A stretch of DNA of 64,000 nucleotides, taken from positions 416,001 to 480,000 of the forward strand of contig CBDCRW010000007.1 in assembly GCA_965221125.1 (NCBI GenBank), in the 5' to 3' direction. Source of the stretch: Alphaproteobacteria bacterium. GTDB taxonomy: Bacteria > Pseudomonadota > Alphaproteobacteria > UBA828. Below the pieces are notes generated by a model. That model saw only the letters and a list, made by a program, of their open reading frames with translations, had not been told where the DNA came from and ran no database searches. Both the position numbers and the translations under genes were made by a program. Below, one piece after another: positions 7,936-24,205 of the stretch; the first letter of the stretch is position 1; the number at the start of each line of letters is the position of its first letter.

Positions 7936-8226
7936 ATGGCGAGACGGTCTGCGACCAGCTTCGACGAGAGCACATTGACCAAGGGTCAACGCCGCAAACT
8001 GGACACACTGCGAAATTCCGTGGGTGACGAGATCGGTGAGCGTGCGTTCGCTGCCTGGTATGCCAAGCAACCGAAGCCTGTCGAGCCTGAAGTGGACCAC
8101 GACGCCGCGTTGATCGTCGATACGCTCTGGCCGCTCGTCCGGGACGGTACGCTGGCAATTCCGCGGGGCGGGTATCTGCTTCGTCGCGGCCGTCACCGAC
8201 TCATTTGCGAGCCCGCAAGAAAATAG
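7936..8226 (+). CDS. Hypothetical 96-aa protein preceding the phage-like module
   Basis: GGAGGT RBS before ATG 7936; AT-rich upstream region; no recognised motif. Confidence 0.6.
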   Translation: MARRSATSFDESTLTKGQRRKLDTLRNSVGDEIGERAFAAWYAKQPKPVEPEVDHDAALIVDTLWPLVRDGTLAIPRGGYLLRRGRHRLICEPARK

Positions 8227-9218
8227 AAATGCGGAGCTTCAGCCACCCGGCATTCGGGAGGCGTTGAACGACCGGGACGAGAATGGGCCGAGCTTGTCTC
8301 GGCCTTGTTCTTGACGAAGTTTCGGCGGGTACGAACGCCAGTATGTCCTTGCACATAGCCGAATATCAATCTCTCCAATCCGTGCAAAGAGGCGTGATTA
8401 GAGACGAATAGGTAAGCCGCGGAGGTCCGCCAATACCCCGGACCATGGTGCGGTGCACAGGCGCTCCGGCGCGAGGCATTGTCCGCGCCATGAACGCTCT
8501 GAACGCTCCAACGCCCATCCACCACCCCGCCCGAGGCGCGGCGCACCGATGCCGCGCCCGTCGGGTTCCGGCTCACCATTTCCACACGTGCGGACGCGCA
8601 CCCATTCGATTCCACGCGCGTGGGGGCGCGCGATGAGCGCGCTCGACGGGTGGATCGACATCTGCCGTGCCGGCACCTGGCGCGACATGCAAGGCCACGA
8701 CGTGCGCCTCGACGAGGATCGGCTTGATCGCATCGTGGCGACGCACGCCGCCGCCGATCCGGCGCCGGTCGTGATCGGTCATCCCGAGACCGACGCGCCG
8801 GCCTTTGCCTGGATCGACGGGCTGCGCCGCGCCGGCGACCGGCTGCAGGCGAAGCTCCGCGACATCGCGCCGGCCTTCCGCGAGGCGGTGGAGGCGGGAC
8901 GCTACAGCGGCCGCTCGATCGCTCTCCAGGGCGACACGCTGCGCCACGTCGGATTCCTGGGCGGCCGCGCGCCGGCAGTGCCGGGGCTCGCGCCGACCCG
9001 CTTCGCGGCTGCGCCCGAGACGGTGGTCGCTTTCACCGACGACGGCGACGCGGACCGTTCAGACGACTCACCCGCAGACCACCCCGACTCTCTCCGCGCC
9101 CTGGAGCCGGGAGGAGACGAAGACGGCGACAGCCTCGTCTCGCTCCCCGCGCCTCAGGGGCGGGGAGAGGCCGAAGAGGACGACGGTGATGAGGACGGCA
9201 ACGAACGTGTCGCCCTAG

Positions 9219-10831
9219 CCCGAATTATTCATGGCAGGTCTGGTTTTGGGGTGGCGGACGTAGCGTAAGTCGTTGCCATCGGGTAGGAATTCGTTGCCGA
9301 GGCGTCTTCCTCTCCGAACAACGAAAATGCCACGCCCGCCATGACCGACGATAGTCTTCTTCCCTTCGATCTGCCAAGCGTCCAACGCAAGAAGGTGAGC
9401 GCCGCCTTCGACGGCGGCCTGATCTCGTCTGACGGCGGCCTCGTCCTGCTTCGTGAGGCGGAACGCAGCTTGCGCCTGGCCGAGACCCTGGCCGGCTGCA
9501 TCCGCGACCGGCGCAAGCAGGCGCAGGTGATCCACTCGCTCTCGGCCATGCTGCGCTTCCGCATGTTCGCCATTGCGTGTGGCTACGAAGATGCCGACGA
9601 CTGCGACGCGCTGCGCGCGGACCCTCTGTTCAAGCTGGCCTCAGGCAAGGCGCCGGAGAGCGGCCGCGCACTCTGCTCCCAGCCGACCATGAGCCGCCTG
9701 GAGAACGCGCCGTCTCGTATCGAGGTGGCGCGCATGACGGCGGCGCTGGTCGATCTCTTCTGCCGCAGCTTCCAAGCCCCTCCCGCCGCCATAACCCTTG
9801 ACATCGACGACACCTGCGATGCGGTGCACGGCCACCAGCAGCTCTCGCTCTTCAACGCTCATTACGACACGCGCTGCTTCCTGCCCGTCCACGTCTACCA
9901 TGTGGAAAGCGGCAAGCCGGTGGCGGTCCTCCTGCGCCCGGGCAAGACGCCGTCGGGCCCTGAGGTCCGCACCCTCATCAAGCATCTGGTCCGCCGCATC
10001 CGCCGCCACTGGCCGCACACCCGGATCGTCTTCCGCGGAGACAGCCACTACGGCCGCCCGGAAGCCATGGCCTGGTGCGAGGAGAACGGGGTCGACTACA
10101 TCTTCGGCCTCGCGGGCAACCGCGCGCTGCACGCGCTCGCATACGAGATGGCCGACGATCTCAAGGTGCGCCGCGCCAAGGCCGGCGCAGACAGGATGCG
10201 CAGCTTCACCGCCTTCGACTACGCCGCCCGCTCCTGGAGCTGCGAACGCCGGGTCGTCGCCCGGCTCGAGGCGAGCACCCGCGGCTTCGATGCCCGCTAT
10301 GTCGTCACCTCACTCAAGGGCGAGCCCCGCCATCTCTACGAAGACATCTACTGCGCCCGCGGCCAGGCCGAGAACCTGATCAAGATGCACAAGGGCCAGC
10401 TCGCCTCGGACCGCACCTCCTGCCAGAGCCCGCTCGCCAATCAGCTCAGGCTGGTCCTCCACACCGCAGCCTACTGGCTCATGCTCGCGCTGCGCGACGC
10501 CATTCCCCGCGCCGCGCCGCTCGCCCGTGCAGAGTTTGCAACCCTCAGGCTGCGCCTCCTCAAGATCGGTGCCCGCGTCATCGAGAAGGCCACCCGCATC
10601 CGCATCCACTTCGCCTCGGCCTGCCCCGACGCCGCCCTCTTCCGCCTGCTCGCAGGCCGCCTCGCCGCAGCAGGCCCATGAGCGACGGGGCGGCGTGCCC
10701 CAATCACCCAGGCTCCATAAACCATCAACCCGATAACGACCATCCTCAGTTCCCGACGCCAAACCGCGTCAGGCCCCGACGCGCCCAATCAACCGAGCAT
10801 CAAGTGCAAGGCAGTCCATGAATAGGTCGGG
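9219..10831 (+). mobile_element. IS1380 family insertion sequence, copy 1 (1613 bp)
   Basis: Imperfect IRs CCCGAATTATTCATGG / CCATGAATAGGTCGGG; CTAG duplicated at 9215-9218 and 10832-10835. Confidence 0.95.
9341..10681 (+). CDS. IS1380 family transposase
   Basis: FDGGLISSDGG, GYEDADD, TLDIDDT, FRGDS, YCARGQAENLIK. Confidence 0.95.
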   Translation: MTDDSLLPFDLPSVQRKKVSAAFDGGLISSDGGLVLLREAERSLRLAETLAGCIRDRRKQAQVIHSLSAMLRFRMFAIACGYEDADDCDALRADPLFKLASGKAPESGRALCSQPTMSRLENAPSRIEVARMTAALVDLFCRSFQAPPAAITLDIDDTCDAVHGHQQLSLFNAHYDTRCFLPVHVYHVESGKPVAVLLRPGKTPSGPEVRTLIKHLVRRIRRHWPHTRIVFRGDSHYGRPEAMAWCEENGVDYIFGLAGNRALHALAYEMADDLKVRRAKAGADRMRSFTAFDYAARSWSCERRVVARLEASTRGFDARYVVTSLKGEPRHLYEDIYCARGQAENLIKMHKGQLASDRTSCQSPLANQLRLVLHTAAYWLMLALRDAIPRAAPLARAEFATLRLRLLKIGARVIEKATRIRIHFASACPDAALFRLLAGRLAAAGP

Positions 10832-11358
10832 CTAGCCGAGCGGGAAGCCTCGCTCGCGGTGCGGGAGGAAGCGCTGCTGGCGCGGGAGGCAGCCGCCGCG
10901 GCAGACGACCGCCGCCGGGCGGCGGAGGCCGCGATTGCGCCGCATGTGGAAGCGGGGCGCATCCTGCCTGCGGAGCGGCCCGCGCTCGTCGCCCTGTTCA
11001 CCGCACTCGACGGCGAGGGGAGACGGGATGACGAGGGCGCCGACGATGGCTGCGTCACGGTCTCGTTCGCGTCCGCATCGGGCGACGAGGTGCAGATGCG
11101 GCCCGCCGCCATTCTCGAACGGTTCATCGAGGGCCTGCCCAGGCGTGTCGACTACCGCACGCTCGCGGGCGGCCCGGTGCCAGGCGCATCGGCCCTCACG
11201 GGCTCTCACGAAGGTACGGGCGAGGACAGCGAACGGATCGCTGCCGAGGCCCGCACGCTGATGGCGGCGGAGGCGGAGAGGGGCGTCACCCTCACGCCCG
11301 CCGAAGCCGTCGACCGGGCGCGCGCGAGGCGCGGACTCGGCATCCAAGGAGGAACGCA

Positions 11359-11715
11359 ATGAGTCATGTGTTGATGTGGCGAGCGGCGGACGCCGGCGGT
11401 GCCGTCGCCTCGCACCGGATCGTCAAGTACGGCGATGCGGACGGCAAGGTGGTGCAGTCCGCCGCTGCCGAGGACGCCCACGTCGGGGTCTCCGGTCGGG
11501 CGTCGGCCGCCTCAGGCGGGCGCGTCGAGATCGCCCGCGCCGGCATCGCCGACGTCCAGTACGGCGGCAACGTCGCGCGGGGCGCGCTGCTCACCGCCGA
11601 TGCCGACGGCAAGGCGGTGGCCGCCGCCGACGGCAATCGCGTCATTGGCATCGCCGAGGTTTCCGGCGCCGCCGGGGACATCGGCCAGGTGCTGCTGGCG
11701 CCCGGCCTCCACTGA
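11359..11715 (+). CDS. Capsid decoration/cement protein (DUF2190-like)
   Basis: Small Gly/Ala-rich protein (GGNVARGALLTADADGKAV, AAGDIGQVLL) between scaffold and capsid genes. Confidence 0.75.
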   Translation: MSHVLMWRAADAGGAVASHRIVKYGDADGKVVQSAAAEDAHVGVSGRASAASGGRVEIARAGIADVQYGGNVARGALLTADADGKAVAAADGNRVIGIAEVSGAAGDIGQVLLAPGLH

Positions 11716-11725
11716 GGGAATCACC

Positions 11726-12700
11726 ATGGATCACGAAACCGCTCAGCTCGCTTCCGGCCCCTACGAGGTCCAGACCCGGCTCACGCAGATCGCGCAGGCG
11801 GCGATGCCCTCCGGCCTGATCGCCGACGAGGTCTGCCCGCGCGTCCGCACCGGGTTCAAGTTCACCTACACGACGCTCACCGAAGAGGACCTGCTCACCA
11901 TCCCGGACGTCCGCGCCTCCCGCGCGGGCCACCTCAACCAGGTCGAGTTCGGCGCCACGGATACCACGGCAAGCGTCGTGGATTACGGCCTCGAAGACCC
12001 CGTCCCCTCACGCGACATCGAAGAGGCGCGCGCCCAGGAGGTCGCCTACGACCCCCTGGAGCAGGCGGCGATCTCGACCGCCGAGTTGGTGAAGCTCGCG
12101 CGCGAGCGGCGTGTCGCCGACCTGGTGACGACTGCGGCCAACTACGCGGCCGGCCATTCCACGACGCTCAACGGCAACGCGCGGTGGAGCCACGCCAGCT
12201 CGAATCCCCGCAAGGCGATCCTGGAGGCCCTCGACGTGCCGCTGGTGCGCCCCAACACGCTGGTGTTCGGCCAGAAGGTGTGGACCGCCCTGCGCCAGCA
12301 CCCGAAGATCGTGGAGGCTGTGGTCGCCACCGGCGCCGGCGACGAAGCCTCCGGCATCGTCATGAAGGAGGCGGTCGCCGAGCTCTTCGAGGTCGACCGC
12401 GTGCTGGTGGGCAAGGCCTGGTACCAGAGCGCCAAGCGCGGCCAGGCCGACTCCTTCGCGCGCCTCTGGGGCAAGCACGCGTGCGCCATCCACGTGCGCC
12501 ACGACATGGTGTCCGCCCGCGACCGCATGCCCAAGTTCTGCTGGACCGCCGATGCGCTGGGCGGGCTGCAGGTCGGCACCTATGAGGAGCCGGCGCGCGG
12601 CGTCAATCGGGGCTCCACGGTCGTCAAGGTCAGCGAATGCGTCAAGGAGCTGGTGGCCTATGGCCGTGCCGGCTACCTCTGGCGCGACGCGGTGGCCTGA
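11726..12700 (+). CDS. Major capsid protein (HK97-fold, capsid E-like)
   Basis: LIADEVCPRV, LARERRVADLV, RPNTLVFGQKVWTALRQHP, AGYLWRDAVA; position after protease and decoration genes. Confidence 0.85.
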   Translation: MDHETAQLASGPYEVQTRLTQIAQAAMPSGLIADEVCPRVRTGFKFTYTTLTEEDLLTIPDVRASRAGHLNQVEFGATDTTASVVDYGLEDPVPSRDIEEARAQEVAYDPLEQAAISTAELVKLARERRVADLVTTAANYAAGHSTTLNGNARWSHASSNPRKAILEALDVPLVRPNTLVFGQKVWTALRQHPKIVEAVVATGAGDEASGIVMKEAVAELFEVDRVLVGKAWYQSAKRGQADSFARLWGKHACAIHVRHDMVSARDRMPKFCWTADALGGLQVGTYEEPARGVNRGSTVVKVSECVKELVAYGRAGYLWRDAVA

Positions 12701-12703
12701 GCC

Positions 12704-13684
12704 ATGGCCGCATCCCCTCCTGATCCACTCTGCGGCCTCGGCTATTCGCCGGCAGACCCGCGCCAGTCGCCCGCCGAGGGCGCGGTCTGCCGGCACGCCG
12801 AGCGCCTGCTCAACATGGTCCACGCCTATTGCGAGATCCGGGACTCGTGGACCGGGTGGCTGCGCTCCGGTGCCATGAGCCGGACGCTGTTCGAGCGGAT
12901 CATCCCGGAGATGCGCGACCTCCAGGCCGCCGAGCGGCGCATCGTGGAGCGGCCGTCGGTAACGCTGCTGGCGGTGCTCGACTACGCCGCACGCGCGCGG
13001 CAGGCGGTGCGGGCGTACACGCCGCGCGAGGGCATCGACCATCCGCAGCCGGCGCTGCCGGACGGGGTGCGCGATGCCTGCGAGCGGATGGCGAGGGAGG
13101 CAGACCAGGCCGACCGTGCCGCCCGCCGCGCGGCCGCGCGCGAATACGCGGCGCGCATGGCCGACGCCATCGAGCGCGAGCGTGAGGAGGAAGCTCGCCG
13201 CCGGAAAGCGATGGTCGGGGCCGGCGTGACCGAGACGCCGGACGAGGCCAGGCGGGCGAGCGCCGCCGTGGAGGCTCGCATCGCGCTCTATGAGAGTGAA
13301 ATCCGGCGTGTCTACGCGAAAGCCGGTCTCGGCCCGGACGGCAAGGCCGAAGCCGCCGAAGCGCCGGCCGAGCCGCCGCCCGCTGCGACCGGAGTCGCCG
13401 TCCACTGGCACGTCCGCACGCGCCGGTGGGGCAGGACGATCCTGACACCCACGGCGGAAACCGCGCCCCGCTTCGCGGAGCGGCTGCTGCTGGTCGACCG
13501 GGGCAAGCGCGGCGGTGTGCTGCGCGCGTTCGGCGAGCCAGCGCTCGACGGTCTGCGCCAGACGATCAACGGCGTCGCCTTCCGCCTGAGCCACCGGCCG
13601 ACTGTCGCCGCGCGCCTTCGGCGCGACGCAGCTCGCTACGACGCGCGGCTCACGCCCGCGCAGGTCCGGGAGATGCGCACATGA
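12704..13684 (+). CDS. Hypothetical 326-aa protein within the head module
   Basis: Long ORF coupled to the next gene by an ATGA overlap; helical charged middle region; no recognised family. Confidence 0.65.
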   Translation: MAASPPDPLCGLGYSPADPRQSPAEGAVCRHAERLLNMVHAYCEIRDSWTGWLRSGAMSRTLFERIIPEMRDLQAAERRIVERPSVTLLAVLDYAARARQAVRAYTPREGIDHPQPALPDGVRDACERMAREADQADRAARRAAAREYAARMADAIEREREEEARRRKAMVGAGVTETPDEARRASAAVEARIALYESEIRRVYAKAGLGPDGKAEAAEAPAEPPPAATGVAVHWHVRTRRWGRTILTPTAETAPRFAERLLLVDRGKRGGVLRAFGEPALDGLRQTINGVAFRLSHRPTVAARLRRDAARYDARLTPAQVREMRT

Positions 13685-14082
13685 CCTACGCGACCCGCGC
13701 GGATCTCGATGCGCGCTTCGGCGCGGAAGAGGCGCTGGACCTCGCCGGGATGCAGGCCGGGCGGATCGAGTCCGCGCTCTCCGACGCGGCGGCCGAGATC
13801 GATGCGGCGCTCGCCGCTGCCTATCGCCTGCCGCTCGCGGGCGGCCCCTGGCCGCGGCTTATTGGCATCGCCTGCGACCTGGCCCGGCGTGCGCTCTACG
13901 ACGACGTCTCGTCAGCCGAAGTCGATGCGCGGGCCGAGCGGGCGCGTGCGGCGCTCGCCCGCCTCGCCGCCGGTGAGGAAGCGCTCCTCGACGACTCGGG
14001 CCGCCCGGCACCCCGACGCGACAGCGCCACGCGCGGCGGCTCGGCGCCCGCGCTCACGCCCGACAGCCTGGCGGGGTTGTGA
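13681..14082 (+). CDS. Mu gp36-like head-tail adaptor (DUF1320)
   Basis: MTYATRADLDARFG, ALSDAAAEID...YRLPL, IACDLARRALY. Confidence 0.85.
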   Translation: MTYATRADLDARFGAEEALDLAGMQAGRIESALSDAAAEIDAALAAAYRLPLAGGPWPRLIGIACDLARRALYDDVSSAEVDARAERARAALARLAAGEEALLDDSGRPAPRRDSATRGGSAPALTPDSLAGL

Positions 14083-14531
14083 TGGCAGGGCAGGGGAGCA
14101 GCGTCGTGGTGGAGATCGCCCCGCGCGACGGATCGCTCGCACGACTGGCAGAGGTGCTTTCGCACCCCGGCGACATCATGGACCGGATCGGCCACTACCT
14201 GGTCGCGTCAACGCACCGGCGCTTCGAGCGCGAGCGCGCACCGGACGGCACGCCCTGGCTCAAGAGCGCCCGCGCCATTGCCGAGGGCGGTCAGACTCTC
14301 ACGAATACAGGCCGCCTGCGCGGCTCGATCGTGCACACGCTCACCGACGGCGGACGAGGCGTCGAAGTAGGGACGAACGTCGTCTACGCCGCCATTCACC
14401 AGTTCAGCGGCCGTGCCGGGAGAGGGCGGAGGACGAAGATTCCCGCGCGCCCCTACCTCGGCGTCGACGAGCACGACCGCGACACGATCCTTCGCATCGT
14501 CGCCCAGGCCATCGAAAGGGCAGGGGCATGA
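14079..14531 (+). CDS. Phage virion morphogenesis protein (Mu gpG-like)
   Basis: RFERERAPDGTPW, LTNTGRLRGS, VGTNVVYAAIHQF, IPARPYLG. Confidence 0.9.
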   Translation: MMAGQGSSVVVEIAPRDGSLARLAEVLSHPGDIMDRIGHYLVASTHRRFERERAPDGTPWLKSARAIAEGGQTLTNTGRLRGSIVHTLTDGGRGVEVGTNVVYAAIHQFSGRAGRGRRTKIPARPYLGVDEHDRDTILRIVAQAIERAGA

Positions 14532-15004
14532 CTCTCGCGGCGCTGGAAATGCACCTCGCCGACGCAGTGGCGGAACGGCTCGCGGCGCTCAAGGCCGACG
14601 ACGACGCGCCGGTCTTTGCGGCCGTTCTCAGCGCGCTCGATACGGCGGCGCTCACGGCCTGGCCCAAGACGCCGGCCGCCCTGGTGCTGCCGATCTCAGA
14701 CGAAGCGGAGGGCAGCACGACGCGGCGCGTCGAGAACGCGCCGGTGCAGCACGTCGTGCGCGTCGGCGTCTCGATGATGGTCGCGGCGCCCAACGACCGC
14801 GGCGGCGTGCGCGGGCGCGAGCGACTCTCCGCCCTGCTCGCCCGCGCCCGGCAGGCGCTTGCGGGCTGGGCGCCGCCCGGCCAGCGCGAGGTCCTGTCCT
14901 TCCGCCGCGGGCGGCTGATCTCGCTGGAGGACGGGCGCCTTCAGTGGCTTGACGAGTACGAAATCCGCCGCGTCGCCCGTGCCGGCGTCGTGGAAGCTGA
15001 ATAG
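14528..15004 (+). CDS. Putative tail terminator/neck protein (Gp37-like)
   Basis: Position before tail tube; ARQALAGWAP motif; ATGA overlap. Confidence 0.6.
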   Translation: MTLAALEMHLADAVAERLAALKADDDAPVFAAVLSALDTAALTAWPKTPAALVLPISDEAEGSTTRRVENAPVQHVVRVGVSMMVAAPNDRGGVRGRERLSALLARARQALAGWAPPGQREVLSFRRGRLISLEDGRLQWLDEYEIRRVARAGVVEAE

Positions 15005-15016
15005 GGAGACACGCGA

Positions 15017-15907
15017 ATGACCGCGCGAAGCATCGACAAGCGCACCGACAACATCCTCATCGGCGCCGGCGAGGTCTATCTCGACATCCACGAGGGAGGC
15101 GCTGCCACGGGCGAGCGCTACCTCGGCGATGCCGTGGGCGCCGAGCTGGAGGTGGCGGCCGAGGAAACCACGGTCTTCTCGGGCTCGGGCCCCGTCGCGC
15201 GCGAGCTCACGCGCATCGCCCGCAGCGTGACGCGGACGGCGCGGCTCACGCTCCACGACATCAGCCTGGAGAACCTGGCGCTCTTCACGGTAGGCGACGT
15301 GAAGCGGCTCGGCGCCGCCGGCGCTGTCTCGGGCGAGGCGGCCATCCTGCGGCCCGGCCGCTGGTACCAGCTGGGAGGGGCCGACCGGCCCGCCGGCGTG
15401 CTCAGGCTCGCGACGCCAGCCAGCAAGGCCGCGGCCATCGCCGCCGTGACCGTCGCCTCCACAGCGCAGACGCCGGTGACGGCGACGCAAGCGATCGAGG
15501 CCAACCGCTTCGCCACGGGCAACGCCGAGGCCGAGCAGAAGGGCCAGTACATCGTGGACTATGCCCGCGCCCGGATATTCTGGTTGCCCGCCGACCACGC
15601 GCTCTACGAGGCCAAGGCCGGTGTCGAGGCGGATACCGCTCTCGCCATCGACTACACGCCCGACGATGCGGCGCGGGACCAGGTGCAGGGCGCGTTCCGG
15701 CAATTGATCGGCGCCTTCCGCTATATCGAGGACGCCGCCGAGGGCCAGGGGCGGAACATCTATGCGCCGCGCTGTTCGATCCAGCCGGCCGGCGGGCTGA
15801 CCCTGCTCGACGGGCGCTCGTCCGAGCAGCAGATCCGCCTCGCCGTCTCGATGCTGGAGCCAGGCGGCGGCCGGCCTGCGCTCTATATCGACGGGCAGGC
15901 CGCATGA
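15017..15907 (+). CDS. Major tail tube protein (non-contractile)
   Basis: ILIGAGEVYLD, ERYLGDA, LHDISLENLALF, PALYIDG; no sheath gene present. Confidence 0.75.
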   Translation: MTARSIDKRTDNILIGAGEVYLDIHEGGAATGERYLGDAVGAELEVAAEETTVFSGSGPVARELTRIARSVTRTARLTLHDISLENLALFTVGDVKRLGAAGAVSGEAAILRPGRWYQLGGADRPAGVLRLATPASKAAAIAAVTVASTAQTPVTATQAIEANRFATGNAEAEQKGQYIVDYARARIFWLPADHALYEAKAGVEADTALAIDYTPDDAARDQVQGAFRQLIGAFRYIEDAAEGQGRNIYAPRCSIQPAGGLTLLDGRSSEQQIRLAVSMLEPGGGRPALYIDGQAA

Positions 15908-16447
15908 AGGCCGTGCACGAGCTGGCGGTGCTGTTCCCGGACCGCGACGTAGCGGTGCGGGATCCCGACACCGGCGCCGAGGTCTCGCTCACGGTGCGGG
16001 AGTTCCGCTTCCGCGAAGGGCTGCGACGGCGCTGGGGCGGCCCTTGATCGCGGCCCTGGCGGCGCTGGTGCCGGAGACGGGCAGCAGCGCGAACGACCAG
16101 GAGGATGAACCGGACGCGCTTACGATCGAGAGCGCGCTCGCCGCCCATGCGGCGCTCTGGCTGGAACTCACCGCCCGCGCCTGCGGCCGGGATGCGGACT
16201 GGCTCGCGCGCCTCGGCGATGCGGACGGCCGCGCGCTCTCGGAGGCGATGTGGGCGGCGAACGGAGGATTTTTTTTGCGCCGCGTCGTGGCCCAGGTGGC
16301 GAGCCGGGCGCGGGGAGCGAACCCGTTGCGCTCTCCCGCGTGCTCGACACCCTCGTCCGCGCCGGCCACGGGCGCGGCCACCTCGACCTCGGCGAGCGCC
16401 TGACGTGGCGGCAGATCGTCCTCTTCTACCGAACGGCGACGGAATGA
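15904..16447 (+). CDS. Tail assembly chaperone G/GT pair (DUF6631-like), with programmed -1 site and an extra frameshift near 16020
   Basis: MKAVHELAVLFPDR...TVREFRFREGL continues in another frame to MWAANGGFFLRRV. T8 run at 16269-16276 leads to a -1 frame reading LVRAGH...LTWRQIVLFY. Confidence 0.7.
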
Positions 16448-16471
16448 CCGGCTGGCGGTCGAAGGAGATGG

Positions 16472-16581
16472 TGCATCGGGAGCGCCGGGCCGTAGGCCCG
16501 GACGGCGCGGACGCGCCGCGCGCCGCACGGCGCGAGAGCCAAGCGAGCGGAGCGAGCGCCCGGCGACTGAGGGAACCAAAA
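16472..16581 (+). repeat. ~105-bp GC-rich palindromic repeat, copy 1
   Basis: Core CAAGCGAGCGGAGCGAGCGCCCGGCGACTGAGGGAA shared with 17369-17474 and 17847-17952. Confidence 0.85.
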
Positions 16582-16582
16582 T

Positions 16583-17362
16583 ATGCCAAGTGATCTCGAT
16601 CTCGCGGTGCGCGTTCGTGCCGACATGCGCGAGGCGCTGCAGGGAATCGGCGCGCTCAACCGCTCCCTCGGGGATACCGCGCGGCGGAGCGGCGAGGCGG
16701 ACGCGGCGCTTGCGGGCGCAACCGGCGCGGCGCGGGAACTCTCGGCGACGTTCGGGCGGGCGCCGGGTCCCGAGGCGGACGCAGCCTGGATCGACGCGAT
16801 GCAGACATCGCTGAGCGCTCTCGGCCGCGAGAGCGAGCGCACGCTTGATGGAACCCGATCTGCGGCGGAGACCGCCTTCGACGCCATGGAGGGGGCGCTC
16901 ACCCGGTTCGTGACCACGGGCAGGCTCGATTTTTCCGGCTTCGTCGATTCCGTGATCGCCGATCTCGCCCGCCTGGCGACACGCCGCTTCTTCGCCCAGC
17001 CCCTGAGCGACCTGCTGTTCGGCGTGCTCGGCGGCGGCGCGGCGGCTGCCTCTGCCCCGATCTTCCACGCCGGCGGCACGATCGGCGCGCTGGGCGGCGT
17101 CAGGCGGGACGCCGGGCTCCGCGCCGATGAGGTGCCGGTGATCGCGCAACGCGGCGAGACGATCCTGCCGCGCGGCGCGCGGATCGCTCCGCCTTCCGTG
17201 CACGTCAACTTCGAGAACCGCGGCACGCCGCAGCGCGAGGTGAGCCGCGAGGTGCGCTTCGATGCCCGCGGCGTCGTTGTCTCAATCGTTACCGACGATC
17301 TCCGGCGGGGCGGCCCCATTCGTCAGACCATGCAGCGCGAACTCGGCGGAGGCACGCGATGA
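16583..17362 (+). CDS. Very short tape measure protein (259 aa) with lambda-type C-terminal region
   Basis: DLDLAVRVRAD N-terminus, AFDAMEGALTRFVTTGRLDFSGFVDSVIADLAR, FHAGG...DEVPVIAQRGE. Confidence 0.85.
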   Translation: MPSDLDLAVRVRADMREALQGIGALNRSLGDTARRSGEADAALAGATGAARELSATFGRAPGPEADAAWIDAMQTSLSALGRESERTLDGTRSAAETAFDAMEGALTRFVTTGRLDFSGFVDSVIADLARLATRRFFAQPLSDLLFGVLGGGAAAASAPIFHAGGTIGALGGVRRDAGLRADEVPVIAQRGETILPRGARIAPPSVHVNFENRGTPQREVSREVRFDARGVVVSIVTDDLRRGGPIRQTMQRELGGGTR

Positions 17363-17368
17363 TCCGGG

Positions 17369-17474
17369 TGAAGGGCCGGGGCGCGAAGCGGCCCGGAGCG
17401 CGCGACCGCGCGCCGCGCGAAGCGCGTAGGCAAGCGAGCGGAGCGAGCGCCCGCCGATTGAGGGAAACGAACAA
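17369..17474 (+). repeat. ~105-bp palindromic repeat, copy 2
   Basis: CAAGCGAGCGGAGCGAGCGCCCGCCGATTGAGGGAA core. Confidence 0.85.
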
Positions 17475-17843
17475 GTGACGGGCCTCGTCTGGCCCGACTA
17501 CGCGGCGGTCGAGGCGGACGGCTACGCCGTCAGCGACGACACCAACGTGGAACGCACGCCCTTCGACGACGGCTTGATCCGCCAGGTGCGGCGCCATGCA
17601 AGCGCGCTGACGGCGCTCTCGATCACCGCCTTGCTCGCGAACGACGCCGACTATCGGCGCTTTCGCGCCTGGGCGGCGGAGAACGCGCATCGCTGGTTCG
17701 CATGGGCGGCACCGGAGTCCGGCACCGTGCATCAGGTGCGCGTGCGCGGCGGCGCCGGCGGAATCGAATACACGGCGCGCATCGGCCCGGACGGCCGGCG
17801 CTCGTGGGAGGCGATCCTCGATCTCGAGGGCGTCGGACTTTGA
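17475..17843 (+). CDS. Distal tail (Dit)-like protein
   Basis: WPD...VERTPFDDGLIRQVRR, FRAW...WFAW; directly after the tape measure gene. Confidence 0.65.
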   Translation: MTGLVWPDYAAVEADGYAVSDDTNVERTPFDDGLIRQVRRHASALTALSITALLANDADYRRFRAWAAENAHRWFAWAAPESGTVHQVRVRGGAGGIEYTARIGPDGRRSWEAILDLEGVGL

Positions 17844-20800
17844 GCCTTTTGTATTTCCCTCAATCGCCGGGCGCTCGCTCCGCTCGCTTGGCTACGCGCT
17901 GCGCGCGCGGCGCGGTCGCGCCGTCCGGGCCTGCCGGCCCGGCCCTCATGCAGCAAAGCGGTAGGGCGACTCAAATCTCTACCGATATCTGGCCGCATCC
18001 GCTCACTGCGCACGGCCGCCAGGCCCGCGCGCTCGCGGTGCTGCCGGAGACCGCCCTCGCGGATGTGATCGCGGAGGCGCTGCCCGGCGCCGGCGATTCC
18101 GATCTGATCGCGTCCGCGCTACCGCTGCGCTGCTTGAGCGCGGACGCGCCCTTCACCGCCGCCATCGATGGCCGGCCCGTGCCGCCGGCCGTCTGGGCAA
18201 CAACGCAACTCCGCGCCGGCCAGATCGTCACCTTGCGCGCGGCGCTGGCCGACGGCAGCGGGGGCAAGAATCCCCTCGCCGCAATCCTCCAGATCGCCAC
18301 CCTCGTCGCCGCCATTGTGGTGCCGCCCCTGCTCTTCGCCTCATCCTGGGCGCAAGCGATCACCGGCGCCGCCATCACCATCGCCGGCGGGCTGATCGTG
18401 AATGCGCTCGCCCCGCCCCGCGCGCCGGATGCCCTGCCCGAGCCGGGCGCCGCGCCCGCGCCCGTCTACAGCCTCCGCGCCGGCTCCAATCGCGCGCGCC
18501 CCTACGAGCCCCTGCTGCTCGTCATGGGCGCGCATCGCGTGTTCCCCGATCTCAGCGCCGCCGAGTACACCGAGATCGTCGACGGCGAGCAGTACCTCCA
18601 TCAGATTTTCAACTTCGGCCTCGGCAATCTCGCCATCGACGATTTCCGCATCGGCGAGACGGCGCTGCGCTCCTACGAGGAGGTGAGCCTCCAGCGCGAC
18701 GATGCGGCCGGCGCGCTTACCCTCGTCGCCGGCAACGTGGACAGCGAGGCCGGCGGCGTGCTGGCCGATCCCGCCTTTATCGAAAGGGCCACCGGCCCGA
18801 ACACGGGGCGCATCGGCATCGATCTCGCCGGGCGCATCTTCGAGGTGAACGAGCAGGGCGATATCGTCGCGAACAGCGTGGAGATCGAGGTCCAGTGGGA
18901 GCCGGCCGCCGGCGGCGGCCCGGTGGAAAGCCGCACGGTCACGCTCACCAACGATAGCCAAGCGCCCTATCGCCGCACGCTGGGCTACGATCTCGGCACG
19001 CCCGGCGCCTGGATCGTGCGCGTGCGCCGCGCCGCCCCGCCGGCCGATTCGGATCGCGTCTATGACGATCTCTCCTGGGCCGCGCTCCGCGCCTATCAGC
19101 TCGATACGGCCGATTACCAGGGGCAGACGCGCTACGCCCTGCGCATCCGCGCATCCGGCCAGCTTTCCGGCCGCCTCAATCGCGTCTCCGCGATGGTGCG
19201 CCAGCGCGTGCCTACATGGGACGGCACTCAATGGACGGCCTCGATGCCGACGGACAACCCGGCATGGCTGTTCCGCTGGTATGCGCGGGGCATCCGCGTG
19301 GACGGCCGCCTCGTGGCCGGCCTCGGCCTCTCCAGCCGGCGCATCGATGAGGAGGCGCTGAAAGCATGGGGCGCCTGGTGCGCCGCGCAAGGGCTCGGCT
19401 GCAACCTTGTGCTGGACCGCGCCATCACGCATGGCGATGTGCTGGCGCTCATCGCCCAATGCGGGCGCGCGAGCGTGAGCTGGCAGAGCGGCAGGCTCGG
19501 CGTGGTCTGGGAGGAAGCCGGGCGCCCGGCAACGGCCCTGATAACGCCCGGCAACATCGTCGCCGGCTCCTTCGCCGTGGAATACGCCAATGGCCGCGGG
19601 GCGGACGAGATCGCGGTGCGCTACATCGATCCCGCGCTCGATTGGCAATACAACACGCTCCGCCGCCTGGCGCCCGGCGTCACGACTCCGCCCGCGAGCA
19701 CGGCCACGATCACGCTGCACGGCGTCACCTCAAGCATGCAGGCGGCGGCGGAATGCAATCTGCAGGCCGCGCGCCAGCTCTACCATCGCCGCCGCTTCTC
19801 ATGGGAGATGGCGGCGGAGGGGCTTTCGCTCGCGCGGGGCGACGTGGTCCATCTCACCCATTCCCTGATCGATGGCGGGCGCGCCGGGCGCCTCGCCGGC
19901 GGCGATGCCGCGCGCCCGGTGCTCGATAGGCCGGTGAACGTCGACGGCGGTGGCGAGATGCTGTTCCGCCTGGCGGACGGCCGCGTGCATCGGAGCGCCG
20001 TCTCCGCCCCGCCGGGCGTGGCCGGGGAGACCGCCGCAATCGCGCTCGCCACGCCCTTGCCGCAGGCCCCGGATGCGGATGGCGCCAGCCCGCGCGATTC
20101 GCTCTGGCGCCTCTACGATGCCGCCCTGCCGCCGGTGCGCGCCCGCATCGTCGCGGTAGAGCCCGCAACGGACCGGCGGGTGCGCTTTACCGCCATCGAC
20201 GAGCTCGCGCTCTACTACGATGCCGCCACGCTCGATCTCTCCGCACCGCTGCCGCCGCTGCGCTCGCGCGCGCCCCGCATCCTCGATGTCACGCTGGCCG
20301 AAACGCTGGTGCGCGTGGGCGCCGGCTTCGCCGTGGAGATCGAGGCCGCGCTGACCGTGGCCGGCGATTGGCGGGGCGGCGTGATCCGCGCCGGCATCGA
20401 TGGCGAGACGCCGCGCACCGTGGCGCGCATGATCGATGGCGAGACCACCGCGCGATGGCTGGCGCCGCCCGCCGGCACGCTCACCGTGACCGTCACGCCC
20501 GGCACGGAGGCCGCGCCCTCCGGCGCGCCGTTCACTACCATCTACGAGATCGTCGGCCCCCTGGCGCCGCCGCTGCCGCCCTCCAATTTCCTGATCGATG
20601 TGCTGGGCGACGGCACGCGGCGCCTGCGCTGGACCCCGCCGCTGGACGTCGATCTCGCCGGCGTGCTGATCCGCTTCGGCGCCCAGGCCCGCCCGCCGCT
20701 GGATTGGGAGCAGCTCATGCCGCTGCATCGGGGCCATCTCACCGCCTCGCCGCTGGAGACAATCGAGCCGCCCGCCGGCGTCTGGGTCTTTTCGGCCCGC

Positions 20801-21565
20801 GCCATCGATACCGGCGGGCGCCTCTCCGAAGAGGAGGTGCGGATCGTGGCCGAGCTCGGGCCGCAGCGCCAGGGCGATGCCATCGTTTGGGTCTGCCCCT
20901 CCGCTACCGGCTGGCCCGGCACGCTGTTCGATACCATCGAACGCTCCGATGATGGCCGCGATGCGCTGGAGAACATCGGCGATTACACCTGGGACGATCT
21001 CACCACCTGGGACGCCTGGGAGTCGTGGACAACCGGGAACGGCATGCAGGCGACCACGGAGATCCTGTTTCGGAGCACGGTCGAAGATTTGGGCGCCGTG
21101 TTCGATGCCGAGTTGCGCTGGACGGCGGATGTGGTGGGCGAGGCCGAATTCGAATACCGCGCCGCGGAGGCGCGGGAGGATATCGCGGGCGCGGCCTGGA
21201 CGCCCTATGTGCCGGCGACAACGGTGCATGGGCGCTTCCTGCAAATGCGCTGGCGCGTCACCGGCGACGGCACGCGGGTTATCGGCCTCGATCACCTCTG
21301 CTGGTCAATCCACGCCCCCGGCGCCATCCGCAAGCTGCTTGATCGCAACACGGCCGATTGGCCGGGCACGGCGGCGGATGGGCGCGAGGTGCCGAACGAT
21401 CTCCGCCTCGTCACCGATCTCGACGTCACCCTGCAATCCGTAAGCGCCGGCTGGAGCTGGACGCTGCTCAGAAAGAACGATCCCACGCTGATCAGGATTT
21501 ACGATGGCGACGGCAATCCGGCCGATGCCATCGTGGACGTGATCGTGCGCGGCGTCGCCGCATAG
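17840..21565 (+). CDS. Tail tip/host-specificity protein (gpI-gpJ-like fusion with FN3-like region)
   Basis: GGKNPL, NRARPYEPLLLVMG, LRIRASGQLSG, TDNPAW, ITPGNIVAGSF; start at TTG 17840 (TTGA overlap) or ATG 17948. Confidence 0.85.
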   Translation: MSLLYFPQSPGARSARLATRCARGAVAPSGPAGPALMQQSGRATQISTDIWPHPLTAHGRQARALAVLPETALADVIAEALPGAGDSDLIASALPLRCLSADAPFTAAIDGRPVPPAVWATTQLRAGQIVTLRAALADGSGGKNPLAAILQIATLVAAIVVPPLLFASSWAQAITGAAITIAGGLIVNALAPPRAPDALPEPGAAPAPVYSLRAGSNRARPYEPLLLVMGAHRVFPDLSAAEYTEIVDGEQYLHQIFNFGLGNLAIDDFRIGETALRSYEEVSLQRDDAAGALTLVAGNVDSEAGGVLADPAFIERATGPNTGRIGIDLAGRIFEVNEQGDIVANSVEIEVQWEPAAGGGPVESRTVTLTNDSQAPYRRTLGYDLGTPGAWIVRVRRAAPPADSDRVYDDLSWAALRAYQLDTADYQGQTRYALRIRASGQLSGRLNRVSAMVRQRVPTWDGTQWTASMPTDNPAWLFRWYARGIRVDGRLVAGLGLSSRRIDEEALKAWGAWCAAQGLGCNLVLDRAITHGDVLALIAQCGRASVSWQSGRLGVVWEEAGRPATALITPGNIVAGSFAVEYANGRGADEIAVRYIDPALDWQYNTLRRLAPGVTTPPASTATITLHGVTSSMQAAAECNLQAARQLYHRRRFSWEMAAEGLSLARGDVVHLTHSLIDGGRAGRLAGGDAARPVLDRPVNVDGGGEMLFRLADGRVHRSAVSAPPGVAGETAAIALATPLPQAPDADGASPRDSLWRLYDAALPPVRARIVAVEPATDRRVRFTAIDELALYYDAATLDLSAPLPPLRSRAPRILDVTLAETLVRVGAGFAVEIEAALTVAGDWRGGVIRAGIDGETPRTVARMIDGETTARWLAPPAGTLTVTVTPGTEAAPSGAPFTTIYEIVGPLAPPLPPSNFLIDVLGDGTRRLRWTPPLDVDLAGVLIRFGAQARPPLDWEQLMPLHRGHLTASPLETIEPPAGVWVFSARAIDTGGRLSEEEVRIVAELGPQRQGDAIVWVCPSATGWPGTLFDTIERSDDGRDALENIGDYTWDDLTTWDAWESWTTGNGMQATTEILFRSTVEDLGAVFDAELRWTADVVGEAEFEYRAAEAREDIAGAAWTPYVPATTVHGRFLQMRWRVTGDGTRVIGLDHLCWSIHAPGAIRKLLDRNTADWPGTAADGREVPNDLRLVTDLDVTLQSVSAGWSWTLLRKNDPTLIRIYDGDGNPADAIVDVIVRGVAA
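17847..17952 (-). repeat. ~105-bp palindromic repeat, copy 3 (inverted)
   Basis: TTCCCTCAATCGCCGGGCGCTCGCTCCGCTCGCTTG is the reverse complement of the core. Confidence 0.85.
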
Positions 21566-21576
21566 GAGAGGAACAC

Positions 21577-22287
21577 ATGCCCTGGCCGCGAGACGATCTT
21601 GTGACGGACGATCTGGACTCCGGCGCGGATCGCCCGCCGCGCGCGGAATTCTTCAAGCTGTTCGAGCGCGTGAAGGCGATCATCGGCTCGCGCGGCGAGA
21701 TCAACGGCGTTCCGATCCTGGACAGCCGGGGCCGCATTCCGGCGGCGCAGATAGGGCGCGGCGTGGCCGGCGGCGTGGCCTCGCTCGGCCCCGCCGGCAC
21801 CGTGCCGCTGGCCCAGCTCCCGACTCTGTCTGCGCCGGAAAGCGAGGTGCCGCCCGGCGCGATTGCGATGTGGGCCGGCGGCAACGCGGCGCCGCAGGGC
21901 TGGCACAATTGCTATGGCGCCGCCGTGAGCCGCGCCACCTACGCCGCGCTGTTCGCCGCGATTGGCACCACTTACGGCGCGGGCGATGGCGTGAGCACGT
22001 TCAATCTGCCGCATCTGGGCGCGCGCTTCCCGCTGGGCCGCGGCTCCGGCCGCGCCCTCGGCGCCACCGGCGGGGCGGTCACGCATACGCTCACCGAGGC
22101 GGAGATGCCGCGCCACTTTCACACCATCGCGGAATCGGAGGAGGACGATAACCCGGACCCCGGCAACCGGGTGATCACGAACACGCGGGCGCAGCTAGGC
22201 ACGATCAACACGGGCCACGCCGGCGGCAACGCGGCGCACAACAACATGCCGCCCTATCTCGTCGTGAACTTCATCATCAAATGGTGA
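21577..22287 (+). CDS. Tail collar domain protein / short fiber
   Basis: PPGAIAMWAG...VSRATYAALFAAIGTTYGAGDGVSTFNLP, HNNMPPYLVVNFIIK. Confidence 0.9.
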   Translation: MPWPRDDLVTDDLDSGADRPPRAEFFKLFERVKAIIGSRGEINGVPILDSRGRIPAAQIGRGVAGGVASLGPAGTVPLAQLPTLSAPESEVPPGAIAMWAGGNAAPQGWHNCYGAAVSRATYAALFAAIGTTYGAGDGVSTFNLPHLGARFPLGRGSGRALGATGGAVTHTLTEAEMPRHFHTIAESEEDDNPDPGNRVITNTRAQLGTINTGHAGGNAAHNNMPPYLVVNFIIKW

Positions 22288-22329
22288 GACGGGCCGCAAG
22301 CGCGCGGGCGGCGGCGGGGGCGGTGCGAG

Positions 22330-22986
22330 TCAATCCGATGCGCGCTTTTGCGCCCAGCCCCAATTGCCGTCGTCGATCCTGCAATTGCCGAAGCCGGGGT
22401 GCTGCTCCACCAGGAGCGAGAACACCTTTCCGACCTGCGCCGTCGTGGCTTCTTCATCGCTGAGCCGGGCGGCGCGCTGGCGAACGGTCGGGGTGGGGCT
22501 GTTGGCCATCGTCCAGCGCAGATCGTCGAACAGCAGCCAGCCTCCCGGTCTCAGCAGTTTCTCGACCAGGAAGAAGCCGAATCCGGTCACGTCCCACGTG
22601 TGTCCCGCGTCCAGGTAGCAGAAGTCGAAGCGGGGCCGGCAGCAGCCGTCCACGGTCGCCGCCTCGATGACCTTCATCAGCTCCCAGGTGAACGAGCGCT
22701 TGGCAAAGACCGGCCGGACCCACGCGCCCAGTCCCGTGCGTTCGAGCAGCGTTTCGATGTTGGGCGTGCGGTTGCGGGCGCCTTCCAGGTCCATAGTCAG
22801 GACCGAGCCGGAGCCAAGCTCCCGGACAGCGGCGCCGAGGTAGCAGCTCGACTTTCCGTGCGCGAAGCCGAGCTCCAGGATGTCGCGGCACTCGTTCTCG
22901 ATGACGAAGTCGTAGAGCGAGCGCGCCCGGCGAGAGGAGATGAAGGGCAGTCCGTCGAGCTGACTGTCGATCCGGTCGAAACCCAT
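22330..22986 (-). CDS. Class I SAM-dependent methyltransferase (Methyltransf_24-like)
   Basis: ILELGFAHGKS, FDFCYLDAGH, LRPGGWLLFDD. Confidence 0.85.
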   Translation of the reverse strand: MGFDRIDSQLDGLPFISSRRARSLYDFVIENECRDILELGFAHGKSSCYLGAAVRELGSGSVLTMDLEGARNRTPNIETLLERTGLGAWVRPVFAKRSFTWELMKVIEAATVDGCCRPRFDFCYLDAGHTWDVTGFGFFLVEKLLRPGGWLLFDDLRWTMANSPTPTVRQRAARLSDEEATTAQVGKVFSLLVEQHPGFGNCRIDDGNWGWAQKRASD

Positions 22987-23009
22987 TCCCGGTTCGCTTC
23001 GGCTCACGT

Positions 23010-23396
23010 TCAGGCGACAGCGACGGCGTCGATCTCCACCTTCCATTCGGGGCGGACGAGGCCGGCCACCACGATGGTCGTCGATGCGGCCTTGTGGTCG
23101 GCGCCCAGGTGCTGCCGCCGGGCGGCTGCGAGCAGGGGAACGTAGTCGGCGTCCAGCATGTAGGTGATGGTGCGTACGATGTTGGCGGGCGTCATGCCGG
23201 CGTCGGCGAGGACGGCCTCGATGTTGCCCCAGACGCATTCGATCTGCGCCGCCACGTCCTCGGGCACGGTGCCGTCGGGGGCCGTGCCGACCTGCCCCGA
23301 TACGTGCAGCAGGCGCGAGACGTCGACGGCCTCGACGCCGTGGTCGTAGTGGCCGAACGGCCCGGCGATGCCGGCCGGGTTGTATGTCTTGAGCAT
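23010..23396 (-). CDS. RidA/YjgF family protein
   Basis: LHVSGQVG, ASTTIVVAGL, WKVEIDAVA. Confidence 0.9.
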   Translation of the reverse strand: MLKTYNPAGIAGPFGHYDHGVEAVDVSRLLHVSGQVGTAPDGTVPEDVAAQIECVWGNIEAVLADAGMTPANIVRTITYMLDADYVPLLAAARRQHLGADHKAASTTIVVAGLVRPEWKVEIDAVAVA

Positions 23397-24026: not shown

Positions 24027-24166
24027 TTTATCGCTCACGGCAGCCGGCCGTCGCGCGATTCCGCGCGCCTACCGGCGCGACGGCCGGCGCCTCCGCGAGG
24101 GCGCCGCATACGCGGCGGGCCGCTGTCGCGGCCTGTCGCACGTCCGTCAAAGTCGGACGCGCTCTA
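24027..24166. repeat. 140-bp MITE/RIME-like intergenic repeat, copy A
   Basis: Near-identical to 47049-47188; nested hairpins. Confidence 0.9.
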
Positions 24167-24205
24167 TGCGCTCAGCAAGACCATGACACGGGCGAGACGT
24201 GCCGC

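Follow-up and report, generated by a model that had tools for sequence, protein, structure and literature searches.

A phage-derived head-tail gene cluster, recognised by Pfam and PHROG matches, spans 10.8-22.3 kb of a 64-kb stretch of alphaproteobacterial DNA (contig CBDCRW010000007.1, positions 416,001 to 480,000; hereafter the window, with a G+C content of 68.7%, to which all coordinates refer). At three consecutive junctions between its tail genes lie three copies of a palindromic repeat (Table 1), as a preliminary description of the sequence had recorded. The copies share the exact 23-mer CAAGCGAGCGGAGCGAGCGCCCG, at 16540-16562 and 17431-17453 on the forward strand and at 17868-17890 on the reverse strand, for which the expected number of matches was 0 in 100 shuffles with three mismatches allowed. 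A profile built from 38 family members (35 copies from a genome scan plus the three window copies) and run against the window at E<=10 matches exactly three copies in 64 kb, in agreement with the earlier statement that the window contains no others. At ~97-101 nt each, these are slightly shorter than the ~105 bp first given. The three are members of a dispersed repeat family with further copies in the ordinary intergenic regions of other genomes.

Copies of the repeat at tail-gene junctions

The stop/start overlaps at the three junctions (ATGA, ATGA and TTGA) are as first described. Copy 1 consists of hairpins 1-4 plus the tail GACTGAGGGAACCAAAAT and occupies 101 of the 135 nt that separate the stop codon of the T frame of the tail assembly chaperone from the tape-measure ATG. 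Copy 2, a subtype with helix-2 'GCGC' and core-stem 'GC', takes up most of the 112-nt spacer that separates the tape-measure stop from the GTG of a gene for a 122-aa protein, and the G of this GTG is the final base of the copy 2 tail. Copy 3 is inverted, with its tail end adjoining the stop codon of the 122-aa gene and its opposite end adjoining the scar of a 2.7-kb deletion, which is all that junction 3 of the window now represents, no intact native junction being left there.

Relative to copies 1 and 3, copy 2 carries compensated changes in helix 2 and in the core stem. Identity within the window is 72-87%, and the nearest relatives of copies 1, 2 and 3 sit in other genomes (91%, 84% and 95% identity, respectively; the best relative of copy 1, at 91%, is in locus L065). 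Since each window copy resembles copies from other genomes more than it does its neighbours, the three are separate arrivals, and we reject local duplication of one another as their source.

Extent and structure of the repeat family

The family was surveyed by scanning one genome per species for the exact 21-nt core, and the family counts given here hold among the matches listed. The scan identified at least 68 loci with 79 core matches, mostly in metagenome-assembled genomes (MAGs) assigned to Alphaproteobacteria, Rhodospirillales or Magnetospirillaceae, with several loci in the same genome (at least 7 in OY763937.1 and at least 6 in OZ253557.1). Five loci outside Alphaproteobacteria (L002, L003, L024, L032 and L053) are probable chance matches, and all others listed are alphaproteobacterial. 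The full architecture of the window copies is present in 35 of the 79 matches, which were aligned with the three window copies over ~100 nt. These 35 passed a relaxed architecture filter, of which a strict version kept 8/79, and the 44 matches left out comprise truncated copies, copies with other flanking modules (Magnetospirillaceae and similar), tandem duplicates and the five probable chance matches. A profile search of the scan loci returned 85 hits at E<=1e-3, with 43 full-length copies outside the window at E<1e-10.

The repeat unit of ~95-100 nt is built from four hairpins followed by an unpaired 25-nt tail, in the order hairpin 1 (CCGGGCC..GGCCCGG), hairpin 2, hairpin 3, core hairpin around the 21-mer, and tail. 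The core hairpin carries two internal loops, and the tail consensus includes ...GCGCCCG[G/C]CG(A/C). Structure was judged from covariation because folds of single RNA copies are no more stable than their shuffles (z between -1.5 and +0.5). The consensus comprises four helices with 26 pairs, and 99.1% of 986 alignment cells can pair compared with 93.9% in shuffled controls (reached by 0/500). Changes on both sides of a pair occur in 39 cells compared with 11.0 in shuffles (0/500), with five pairs compensated, and the covariation score is 0.129 compared with 0.043 (0/500). Controls in which the pairing was slid pair at 21-52%. In the covariation check proposed in the preliminary description, the alignment thus surpasses 500/500 shuffles and the slid controls, with the qualification that the exact-match scan fixes the core, leaving helix 4 hardly able to vary and making the invariance of the core uninformative.

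The family appears to be undescribed. Rfam 15 has no match on the repeats at the gathering threshold in the whole window or at E<=5 in 16300-18100, and a naRNA4 hit at E=1 inside the 122-aa gene is a chance match. Copy 2 had no BLASTN match in plasmid and phage collections, and the core sequence occurs in no text of the literature searched. We found no terminal inverted repeats (end-to-end complementarity 9.1/25, compared with 10.0 in shuffles), and in this the family departs from the miniature inverted-repeat transposable elements. The interval 15800-18300 contains 0 sigma-70-like promoters and one terminator-like site, with 0.9 expected. The filled site of junction 2 is bordered by ATGA on its left and by GTGA on its right, corresponding to a single GTGA at the empty site of a relative, and junction 1 has no evident target-site duplication.

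In other genomes, different modules stand upstream of the 21-nt core and the tail module is sometimes in tandem, so the core hairpin seems to be a conserved module of several mosaic families. The core stands in other architectures in the JAWLGJ01 loci (including L013, L026, L033 and L045) and in L005, L007, L021 and L035, and a Magnetospirillaceae MAG carries tandem 62-nt units with the core. The copies in L004, L011, L018, L019, L025 and L050 are nested within the arms of a purine/pyrimidine-rich palindrome (GGGAGGAGAGGG... / ...CCCCTCC), which indicates that different repeat families insert into one another.

Genomic positions of family members

Genes flanking the repeats were called with a simple codon-model caller, which is crude and missed the window genes at 13709-15004 and 17475-17843. 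It replaced an earlier GC3-based flank classifier, under which most flanks stayed unclassified and that of copy 1 was called wrongly. Full copies occupy tandem, convergent and divergent intergenic regions, and outside the window the tail points toward a gene start in 18 of 43 copies and toward a gene 3' end in the other 25. Among 65 flanking proteins, 53 have Pfam hits at 1e-12, and nearly all of these are housekeeping or metabolic (including GlyQ, DapB, DnaJ, RecJ, GlpX, HU, cytochrome c' and propionyl-CoA carboxylase); seven of the 53 are transposase-associated or phage proteins. The Y1 transposase domain of REP-associated tyrosine transposases (RAYTs) was found in 0/65, in a search limited to these flanks. 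Ordinary genes next to repeats in L064, L039, L067, L016 and L020 have a separate native Shine-Dalgarno sequence after the repeat tail. The preliminary description had suggested a mobile palindrome that is tolerated only where it preserves translational coupling. Its restrictive part fails at the level of the family, in view of the copies beside housekeeping genes and of the orientation counts above; among the matches listed, this is essentially the scatter through ordinary intergenic regions that the preliminary description had named as refuting it, its figure of hundreds of copies aside.

Counting the window copies, 45 of 46 full copies lie outside open reading frames (ORFs) with a coding-like signature on both sides. 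The single copy with such a signature on both sides is in L022, where the repeat lies in frame 0 within a 385-aa scaffold/protease-like ORF whose halves match the two pieces of the window's scaffold gene at 72% and 80% identity. There, the repeat contributes 34 residues to a low-complexity linker.

Empty and filled sites in an orthologous module

The mobile nature of the palindrome was upheld in outline by an orthologous tail module in L023, a locus of a Rhodospirillales MAG, at 80-88% identity; this is the one orthologue with which sites 1 and 2 were compared. At site 1 of L023, the T stop codon TGA, 3 nt and the tape-measure ATG follow one another, with GGAGG upstream, and at site 2 the next start shares the GTGA with the tape-measure stop. 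By the profile search, too, both sites are empty, and site 3 is filled. Since sites 1 and 2 are empty in L023, copies 1 and 2 are recent insertions and not a conserved tail device. The proposal that the repeats tune the stoichiometry of tail proteins is also contradicted, as copies 1 and 2 are absent from an orthologue whose tail genes are under purifying selection. The site-3 copy of L023 (7257-7377) has the same orientation as copy 3 of the window and has in common with it the tail variant GAGGGAAATA, and it differs in helix-2 type and in having 29 extra nt. Site 3 is either one old insertion later changed by conversion or a site that was hit twice.

Beyond site 3, L023 has a Gp80-like gene, a 556-aa DUF1833 gene, a fourth repeat, an NlpC/P60-like gene and a gene with I-like and J-like parts (I/J gene). 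The Gp80-like, DUF1833 and NlpC/P60-like genes are absent from the window by tblastn, and the I/J gene of the window aligns with that of L023 from residue 8 on, directly after copy 3.

The repeat tail as a putative initiation region

The unpaired tail carries a stop codon TGA, a Shine-Dalgarno-like GAGGGA and often an ATG. As first noted, GAGGGAA precedes the next gene at both forward copies: in copy 1, no other sequence resembling a Shine-Dalgarno lies within 20 nt of the tape-measure ATG, the ancestral AAGGAG being stranded at 16463-16468, ~110 nt upstream of that ATG, and in copy 2 it is the only such sequence before the 122-aa gene. In L023, the NlpC/P60-like peptidase ORF (4589-4987) begins within the repeat copy at 4981-5078, and in L058, whose element lies at 107-172, the peptidase starts at 165, within the element; in both, its ATG falls in the repeat tail. 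To judge from these motifs, translation of the tape-measure and 122-aa genes now probably initiates from the repeat tail.

Two Arg-rich mini-ORFs read through the forward copies with the translations first quoted and render the core in one common frame as QASGASARRLRE. Mini-ORF 1 reads copy 1 in frame 0 and ends 8 nt past the tape-measure ATG; the stop TGA of mini-ORF 2 overlaps the GTG of the 122-aa gene (GTGA), and its first three codons resemble the original start of that downstream gene, now displaced. Two of the forward frames are closed, by TAG (in GTAGCC) and TGA (in CTGAGGG), and frame 0, the frame of QASGASARRLRE, is open in 29 of 41 copies and interrupted by a stop codon in 12. Upstream of the core the reading register varies between copies, and only the 12-residue core block is constant. 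The reading of copy 3 as open in frame from TTG 17840 into the tail tip gene is accurate; as the three reverse-orientation frames are stop-free in 35, 38 and 37 of 41 copies, this open leader is unremarkable.

It has been suggested that the mini-ORFs yield basic peptides. They are Arg-rich and have the block QASGASARRLRE in common, a block that also occurs within the longer ORF of L022. However, frame 0 is open in just those 29 of 41 copies, the register upstream of the core differs with loop length, residues change freely with compensatory changes in the stems, and copies are found in both orientations. Furthermore, no predicted protein of 26-86 aa has three 5-residue words in common with the copy-1 mini-ORF, and 0/338 candidates among longer proteins match it at E<=0.01, the latter being weak evidence. 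That the mini-ORFs encode functional small peptides is therefore scarcely credible, and we read them as by-products.

A second explanation gives the mini-ORFs a role as translated spacers rather than as peptides. Ribosomes would read through the mini-ORF, opening the hairpins on their way, and after terminating at or beside the next start would re-initiate there; in stop-on-start operons the element would persist only with an open frame phased to the displaced start. The layout is suggestive, since mini-ORF 1 begins in the ATGA of the T stop and ends at a TGA 8 nt beyond the tape-measure ATG, mini-ORF 2 runs from the ATGA at the tape-measure stop to the GTGA at the next start, and copy 4 of L023 is laid out alike (TGATG ... 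ATGA). With usually one of three forward frames open, correct phasing in 3/3 cases would have a chance of ~1/27 by our estimate if frames were random, and the tail genes were under purifying selection (dN/dS 0.13-0.31). On the other hand, the ATG or GTG at the upstream stop is the downstream gene's old start codon and hence comes free, the orthologous L058 copy has no start codon at the upstream stop, and frame 0 is closed in the 12 copies mentioned. The tail also brings its own Shine-Dalgarno sequence, so coupling is not required, and the window cluster has three inactivating lesions, so expression may already have been under relaxed selection by the time copies 1 and 2 inserted. We consider such a relay unlikely, though the three sense-oriented junction copies of this cluster, each with an ORF from start-on-stop to stop-on-start, give it some weight.

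An apparently long-lived phage-derived cluster in decay

The genes of the cluster are listed in Table 1. In the interval 7700-23100, no portal or terminase gene lies beside it, and its surroundings are partly retained in relatives: the left neighbour kept in L022 is a gene for a short-chain dehydrogenase/reductase (SDR) followed by a small ORF, and the right neighbour kept in L023 and L058 is the end of a convergent gene at ~23010. The cluster resembles a phage-like element that has been inherited vertically for a long time more than it does a fresh prophage. The tape measure protein has 30% identity to Rhodobacter phage tape measure proteins; its 259 codons, counted stop to stop, are the same in the window and in L023, which together with its dN/dS of ~0.13 rejects the view of it as a truncation remnant. 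The 122-aa gene had been labelled a distal tail (Dit) gene, a label that gene order supports and sequence does not: the protein has no Pfam hit, only phrog_384, and no PDB sequence match below E=0.2, so the gene is Dit-like by gene order only. A run of eight T at 16270-16277, inside the G/T overlap, is a likely -1 slippery site for a G-T fusion, and the T frame ends ~8 codons earlier than in L023.

Table 1 Features of the head-tail cluster, its repeat copies and their junctions (window coordinates)
Feature	Position	Strand	Details
Scaffold/protease-like gene			First in cluster, in two pieces around an insertion sequence
Major capsid gene	11375-12700		
Gene with tail-terminator domain	13709-15004		
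Major tail gene	15017-15907		
G/T tail assembly chaperone	15904-16447	+	G frame at 16044-16403
T frame of G/T chaperone	16250-16447	+	-1 frame relative to G
Junction 1	16444-16447		ATGA at T-frame stop; tape-measure ATG at 16583
Mini-ORF 1, 49 aa	16444-16593	+	ATG overlaps T-frame stop (ATGA)
Repeat copy 1	16484-16584	+	nhmmer E=8.9e-19; exact core; site empty in L023
GAGGGAA in copy 1 tail	16569-16575	+	7 nt before tape-measure ATG 16583
Tape measure protein, 259 aa	16583-17362	+	Pfam Tape_meas_lam_C 2.4e-18; PHROG tape measure families
Junction 2	17359-17362		ATGA at tape-measure stop; GTG of 122-aa gene at 17475
Mini-ORF 2, 39 aa	17359-17478	+	ATG overlaps tape-measure stop (ATGA)
Repeat copy 2	17377-17475	+	nhmmer E=2e-20; site empty in L023
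GAGGGAA in copy 2 tail	17460-17466	+	8 nt before GTG 17475
122-aa tail gene	17475-17843	+	phrog_384 'virion structural protein', 3.2e-14
Junction 3	17840-17843		TTGA at stop of 122-aa gene; I/J-like gene follows
Open in-frame leader	17840-17947	+	TTG 17840 (overlaps stop TGA 17841-17843) through copy 3 to ATG 17948
Repeat copy 3, inverted	17847-17943	-	nhmmer E=9.2e-23; counterpart in L023
Deletion scar	17939-17946	+	~2.7 kb of L023 missing; microhomology CCCG(G)CCC at ends
Tail tip gene, I-like N-terminus fused to J-like body	17948-21565	+	Pfam FNIII-A_GpJ, Phage-tail_3; phrog_31 1.3e-109
Collar-domain fibre gene	21358-22287		

Compared with L023, the window has dN/dS values of 0.13-0.32 in the genes for the chaperone, the tape measure, the 122-aa protein and I/J (T frame ~0.22, 122-aa gene ~0.31); the value for the major tail gene is 0.18 and that for the fibre gene 0.47. 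These low values, together with the equal tape-measure length, indicate that the cluster was functional for a long time. The window cluster is now decaying and carries three lesions. First, an insertion sequence (IS; 9219-10835) with a DDE_Tnp_1_4 transposase (9287-10681) lies inside the scaffold/protease-like gene, with CTAG duplicated at its ends (9215-9218 and 10832-10835), with the gene pieces in phase across it. Second, the G chaperone (15904-16403) is in two frames at ~16023, where a 4-nt deletion relative to L023 represents either a frameshift or an assembly error. Third, the 2.7-kb deletion has removed the native start and the first 7 codons of the tail tip gene (by tblastn, window 17939 aligns to L023 residue 8).

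Copies 2 and 3 flank the 122-aa gene as inverted arms of 78 nt, 91% complementary and 386 nt apart, and the preliminary description had supposed that they could pair or recombine. Recombination between them would invert 17476-17846, and repeats of this kind could in principle have driven rearrangements including the 2.7-kb deletion, whose scar adjoins the end of copy 3. However, the deletion endpoints have only 7-8 nt of the microhomology CCCG(G)CCC in common, and copy 4 of L023, the partner repeat that the deletion took with it, is inverted relative to copy 3, so that homologous recombination would invert the intervening DNA and not delete it. Moreover, the 122-aa gene has the same orientation in the window and in L023. 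A role of the repeats as recombination substrates is thus highly improbable.

Pairing in mRNA might instead make the two copies a co-opted regulator that lowers the dose of the 122-aa protein, with the duplex around its cistron masking the Shine-Dalgarno sequence and the GTG and creating a target for RNase III. In predicted minimum-energy and centroid folds of 17355-17955, the copies pair end to end over ~90 bp (z = -12.3 against shuffles), and the transcribed tail complement UUUCCCUCA is complementary to GAGGGAAA, the putative ribosome-binding site. Among known repeats, Correia elements are documented to be cut by RNase III where their arms pair (review PMC10969869). Any two inverted copies of a 100-nt repeat would fold in this way in silico, however, and transcription-coupled translation would oppose the pairing. 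In addition, L023 has no copy 2, yet its 122-aa gene is under purifying selection, so the arrangement is new and not required. We regard such a regulator as improbable.

Comparison with known repeat systems

The family most resembles repetitive extragenic palindromes (REPs) and bacterial interspersed mosaic elements (BIMEs), which are outlined in PMC3733652 as short GC-rich stem-loops with many dispersed, mostly extragenic copies in either orientation, forming mosaics and occasionally lying within genes. REP super-families tagged by GTAG and CGTC are described there as well; in our family, GTAG stands directly 5' of the core hairpin in 29/38 copies and GACG, the complement of CGTC, follows hairpin 1 in 23/38. 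The sub-families of the window family are set by compensated stem changes, as in REPs. The differences are that the window family is a fixed array of four different hairpins plus a 25-nt tail and not one 20-40-nt palindrome, that its core hairpin contains two internal loops together with a 21-mer that is invariant across several bacterial families, that stop, Shine-Dalgarno and ATG motifs are present in its tail, and that no RAYT transposase is encoded among its 65 flanking proteins.

Rhizobium-specific intergenic mosaic elements (RIMEs) are also alphaproteobacterial, ~100 nt long and built of palindromic modules. Their hosts are rhizobia, in contrast to the Rhodospirillales-type MAGs considered here, a comparison made by description only. 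Rickettsia palindromic elements (RPEs), to which the repeats had been likened, are small palindromic alphaproteobacterial repeats tolerated in frame inside genes, and in R. conorii nearly half of them are inserted in ORFs, each encoding a conserved peptide, according to the review PMC10969869. The analogy, likewise drawn by description only, holds for the one in-frame copy of L022 and goes no further: the window family is intragenic in 1/46 copies and its peptide register is not conserved, and in both respects it departs from the RPEs. Correia repeat enclosed elements (CREEs) and enterobacterial repetitive intergenic consensus (ERIC) sequences are, in the same review (PMC10969869), small non-autonomous gene-adjacent repeats that donate expression signals and form RNase-sensitive RNA structures, in which they are similar to our family. 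They have terminal inverted repeats and promoter or integration host factor (IHF) sites, whereas the window family has neither terminal inverted repeats nor a sigma-70-like promoter, and what it would donate is a Shine-Dalgarno sequence and a start codon.

Other repeats and features of the window

A second, unrelated GC-rich dispersed repeat of ~110 nt occurs in the window at 24060-24170 and 47085-47190, both in ordinary intergenic parts, and in L042 at 4750-4930. In the tail-tip region, a 23-nt mini-palindrome, CTCAAGCAGCG(A/C)AGCGATAG(G/C)GC, recurs at window 17945-17967 on the forward strand and 18116-18138 on the reverse strand, and at 6806-6825, 4537-4556 and 4378-4397 of L023; it is absent from the other 67 loci. 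Two of its copies are in frame within the I-like N-terminus of the I/J gene, and the second is opposite in orientation between the window and L023 (ALPLRCLSA versus ALKQRSDSA). The chromosomal part of the window also contains a SAM riboswitch (RF00162, 44851-44933 on the forward strand, 69.4 bits).

Discussion

We propose, with a probability of roughly 80%, that the three repeats belong to a dispersed non-coding family of the host chromosome, of the REP/BIME kind, which landed in the phage-derived cluster, and that they are not a phage device. The family is scattered in ordinary intergenic regions of many Rhodospirillales-type alphaproteobacterial genomes, in either orientation to the flanking genes, and in this lineage copies landed within a vertically inherited head-tail cluster of phage origin. 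Copy 3, or a predecessor at its site, would be older than the split from the L023 lineage, and copies 1 and 2 would be later, separate insertions from different source subtypes. Since the tail genes are packed stop-on-start, presumably only insertions at the junctions would survive. An insertion at such a junction would move the downstream start away from its own ribosome-binding site, and the element tail (TGA, GAGGGA and often ATG) may then have become the initiation region of the tape-measure and 122-aa genes, as it may have done for the NlpC/P60-like gene in L023 and L058. In the same scheme, the Arg-rich mini-ORFs would represent the one usually stop-free forward frame, begun at the start codon left by the old stop/start overlap, and their translation, if it occurs, may incidentally help ribosomes to reach the next start.

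Several observations weigh against this proposal. (i) Distribution. The three window copies lie within 1.5 kb, all inside the 11.5-kb cluster, and the other ~52 kb of the window, despite its ~45 intergenic regions, contains 0; by length alone, such clustering would have a probability of ~(11.5/64)^3 = 0.006, a post hoc figure. Across three lineages, the ~12-kb cluster has received five insertions at different sites, four of them exactly at gene junctions and the fifth in frame. Neutral scatter does not explain this density, and the precision of the sites needs selection or target preference. The clustering possibly reflects tolerance of a dispensable region, with which the IS agrees, a target preference for stop codons and ribosome-binding sites, or both. 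(ii) Bridging mini-ORFs. Copies 1 and 2 and copy 4 of L023 are each bridged by a mini-ORF from the upstream stop to a point on or next to the downstream start, and among seven other co-directional contexts none has both features, L015 having only the start-on-stop; such a pattern would be expected if a relay had been selected in this cluster. (iii) The core. In Magnetospirillaceae, Roseococcus, Rubritepida, Niveispirillum and other MAGs, the exact 21-mer is found again beside different flanking modules, a breadth that exceeds what is usual for REPs, and its conservation may point to a conserved recognition function. (iv) Mobility. The scan of 65 flanking proteins linked no transposase to the family.

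A further, doubtful idea would take up several of these features at once. The tail (TGA, GAGGGA, ATG, TGA/TAA) and the single open frame could together form a portable cassette of stop, ribosome-binding site and start; a start displaced by insertion would give rise to a relay mini-ORF that sustains translation of the next gene, and the core would be a protein recognition site. If this were true, a REP-like element could colonise sites from which mobile DNA is ordinarily barred, namely the zero-length junctions of coupled operons, as well as the interiors of genes in one frame, and the invariant 21-nt core would be the recognition site of a conserved protein, either a transposase or a host factor.

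For the annotation of this genome, interpreting the repeats as a dispersed host family means that the Arg-rich mini-ORFs and the 36-codon tail-tip leader should not be called genes, and that the repeats are markers of recent insertions, and of the scar left by a deletion, within a phage-derived cluster that is decaying. General knowledge of how such repeats behave is unchanged by this case. What the case does illustrate is a small host repeat that enters stop-on-start junctions and apparently takes over the ribosome-binding site of the next gene, in relatives even its start codon, and that has elsewhere been absorbed in frame into a protein linker. The repeat family could also serve for strain typing and dating in uncultured Rhodospirillales-type lineages.

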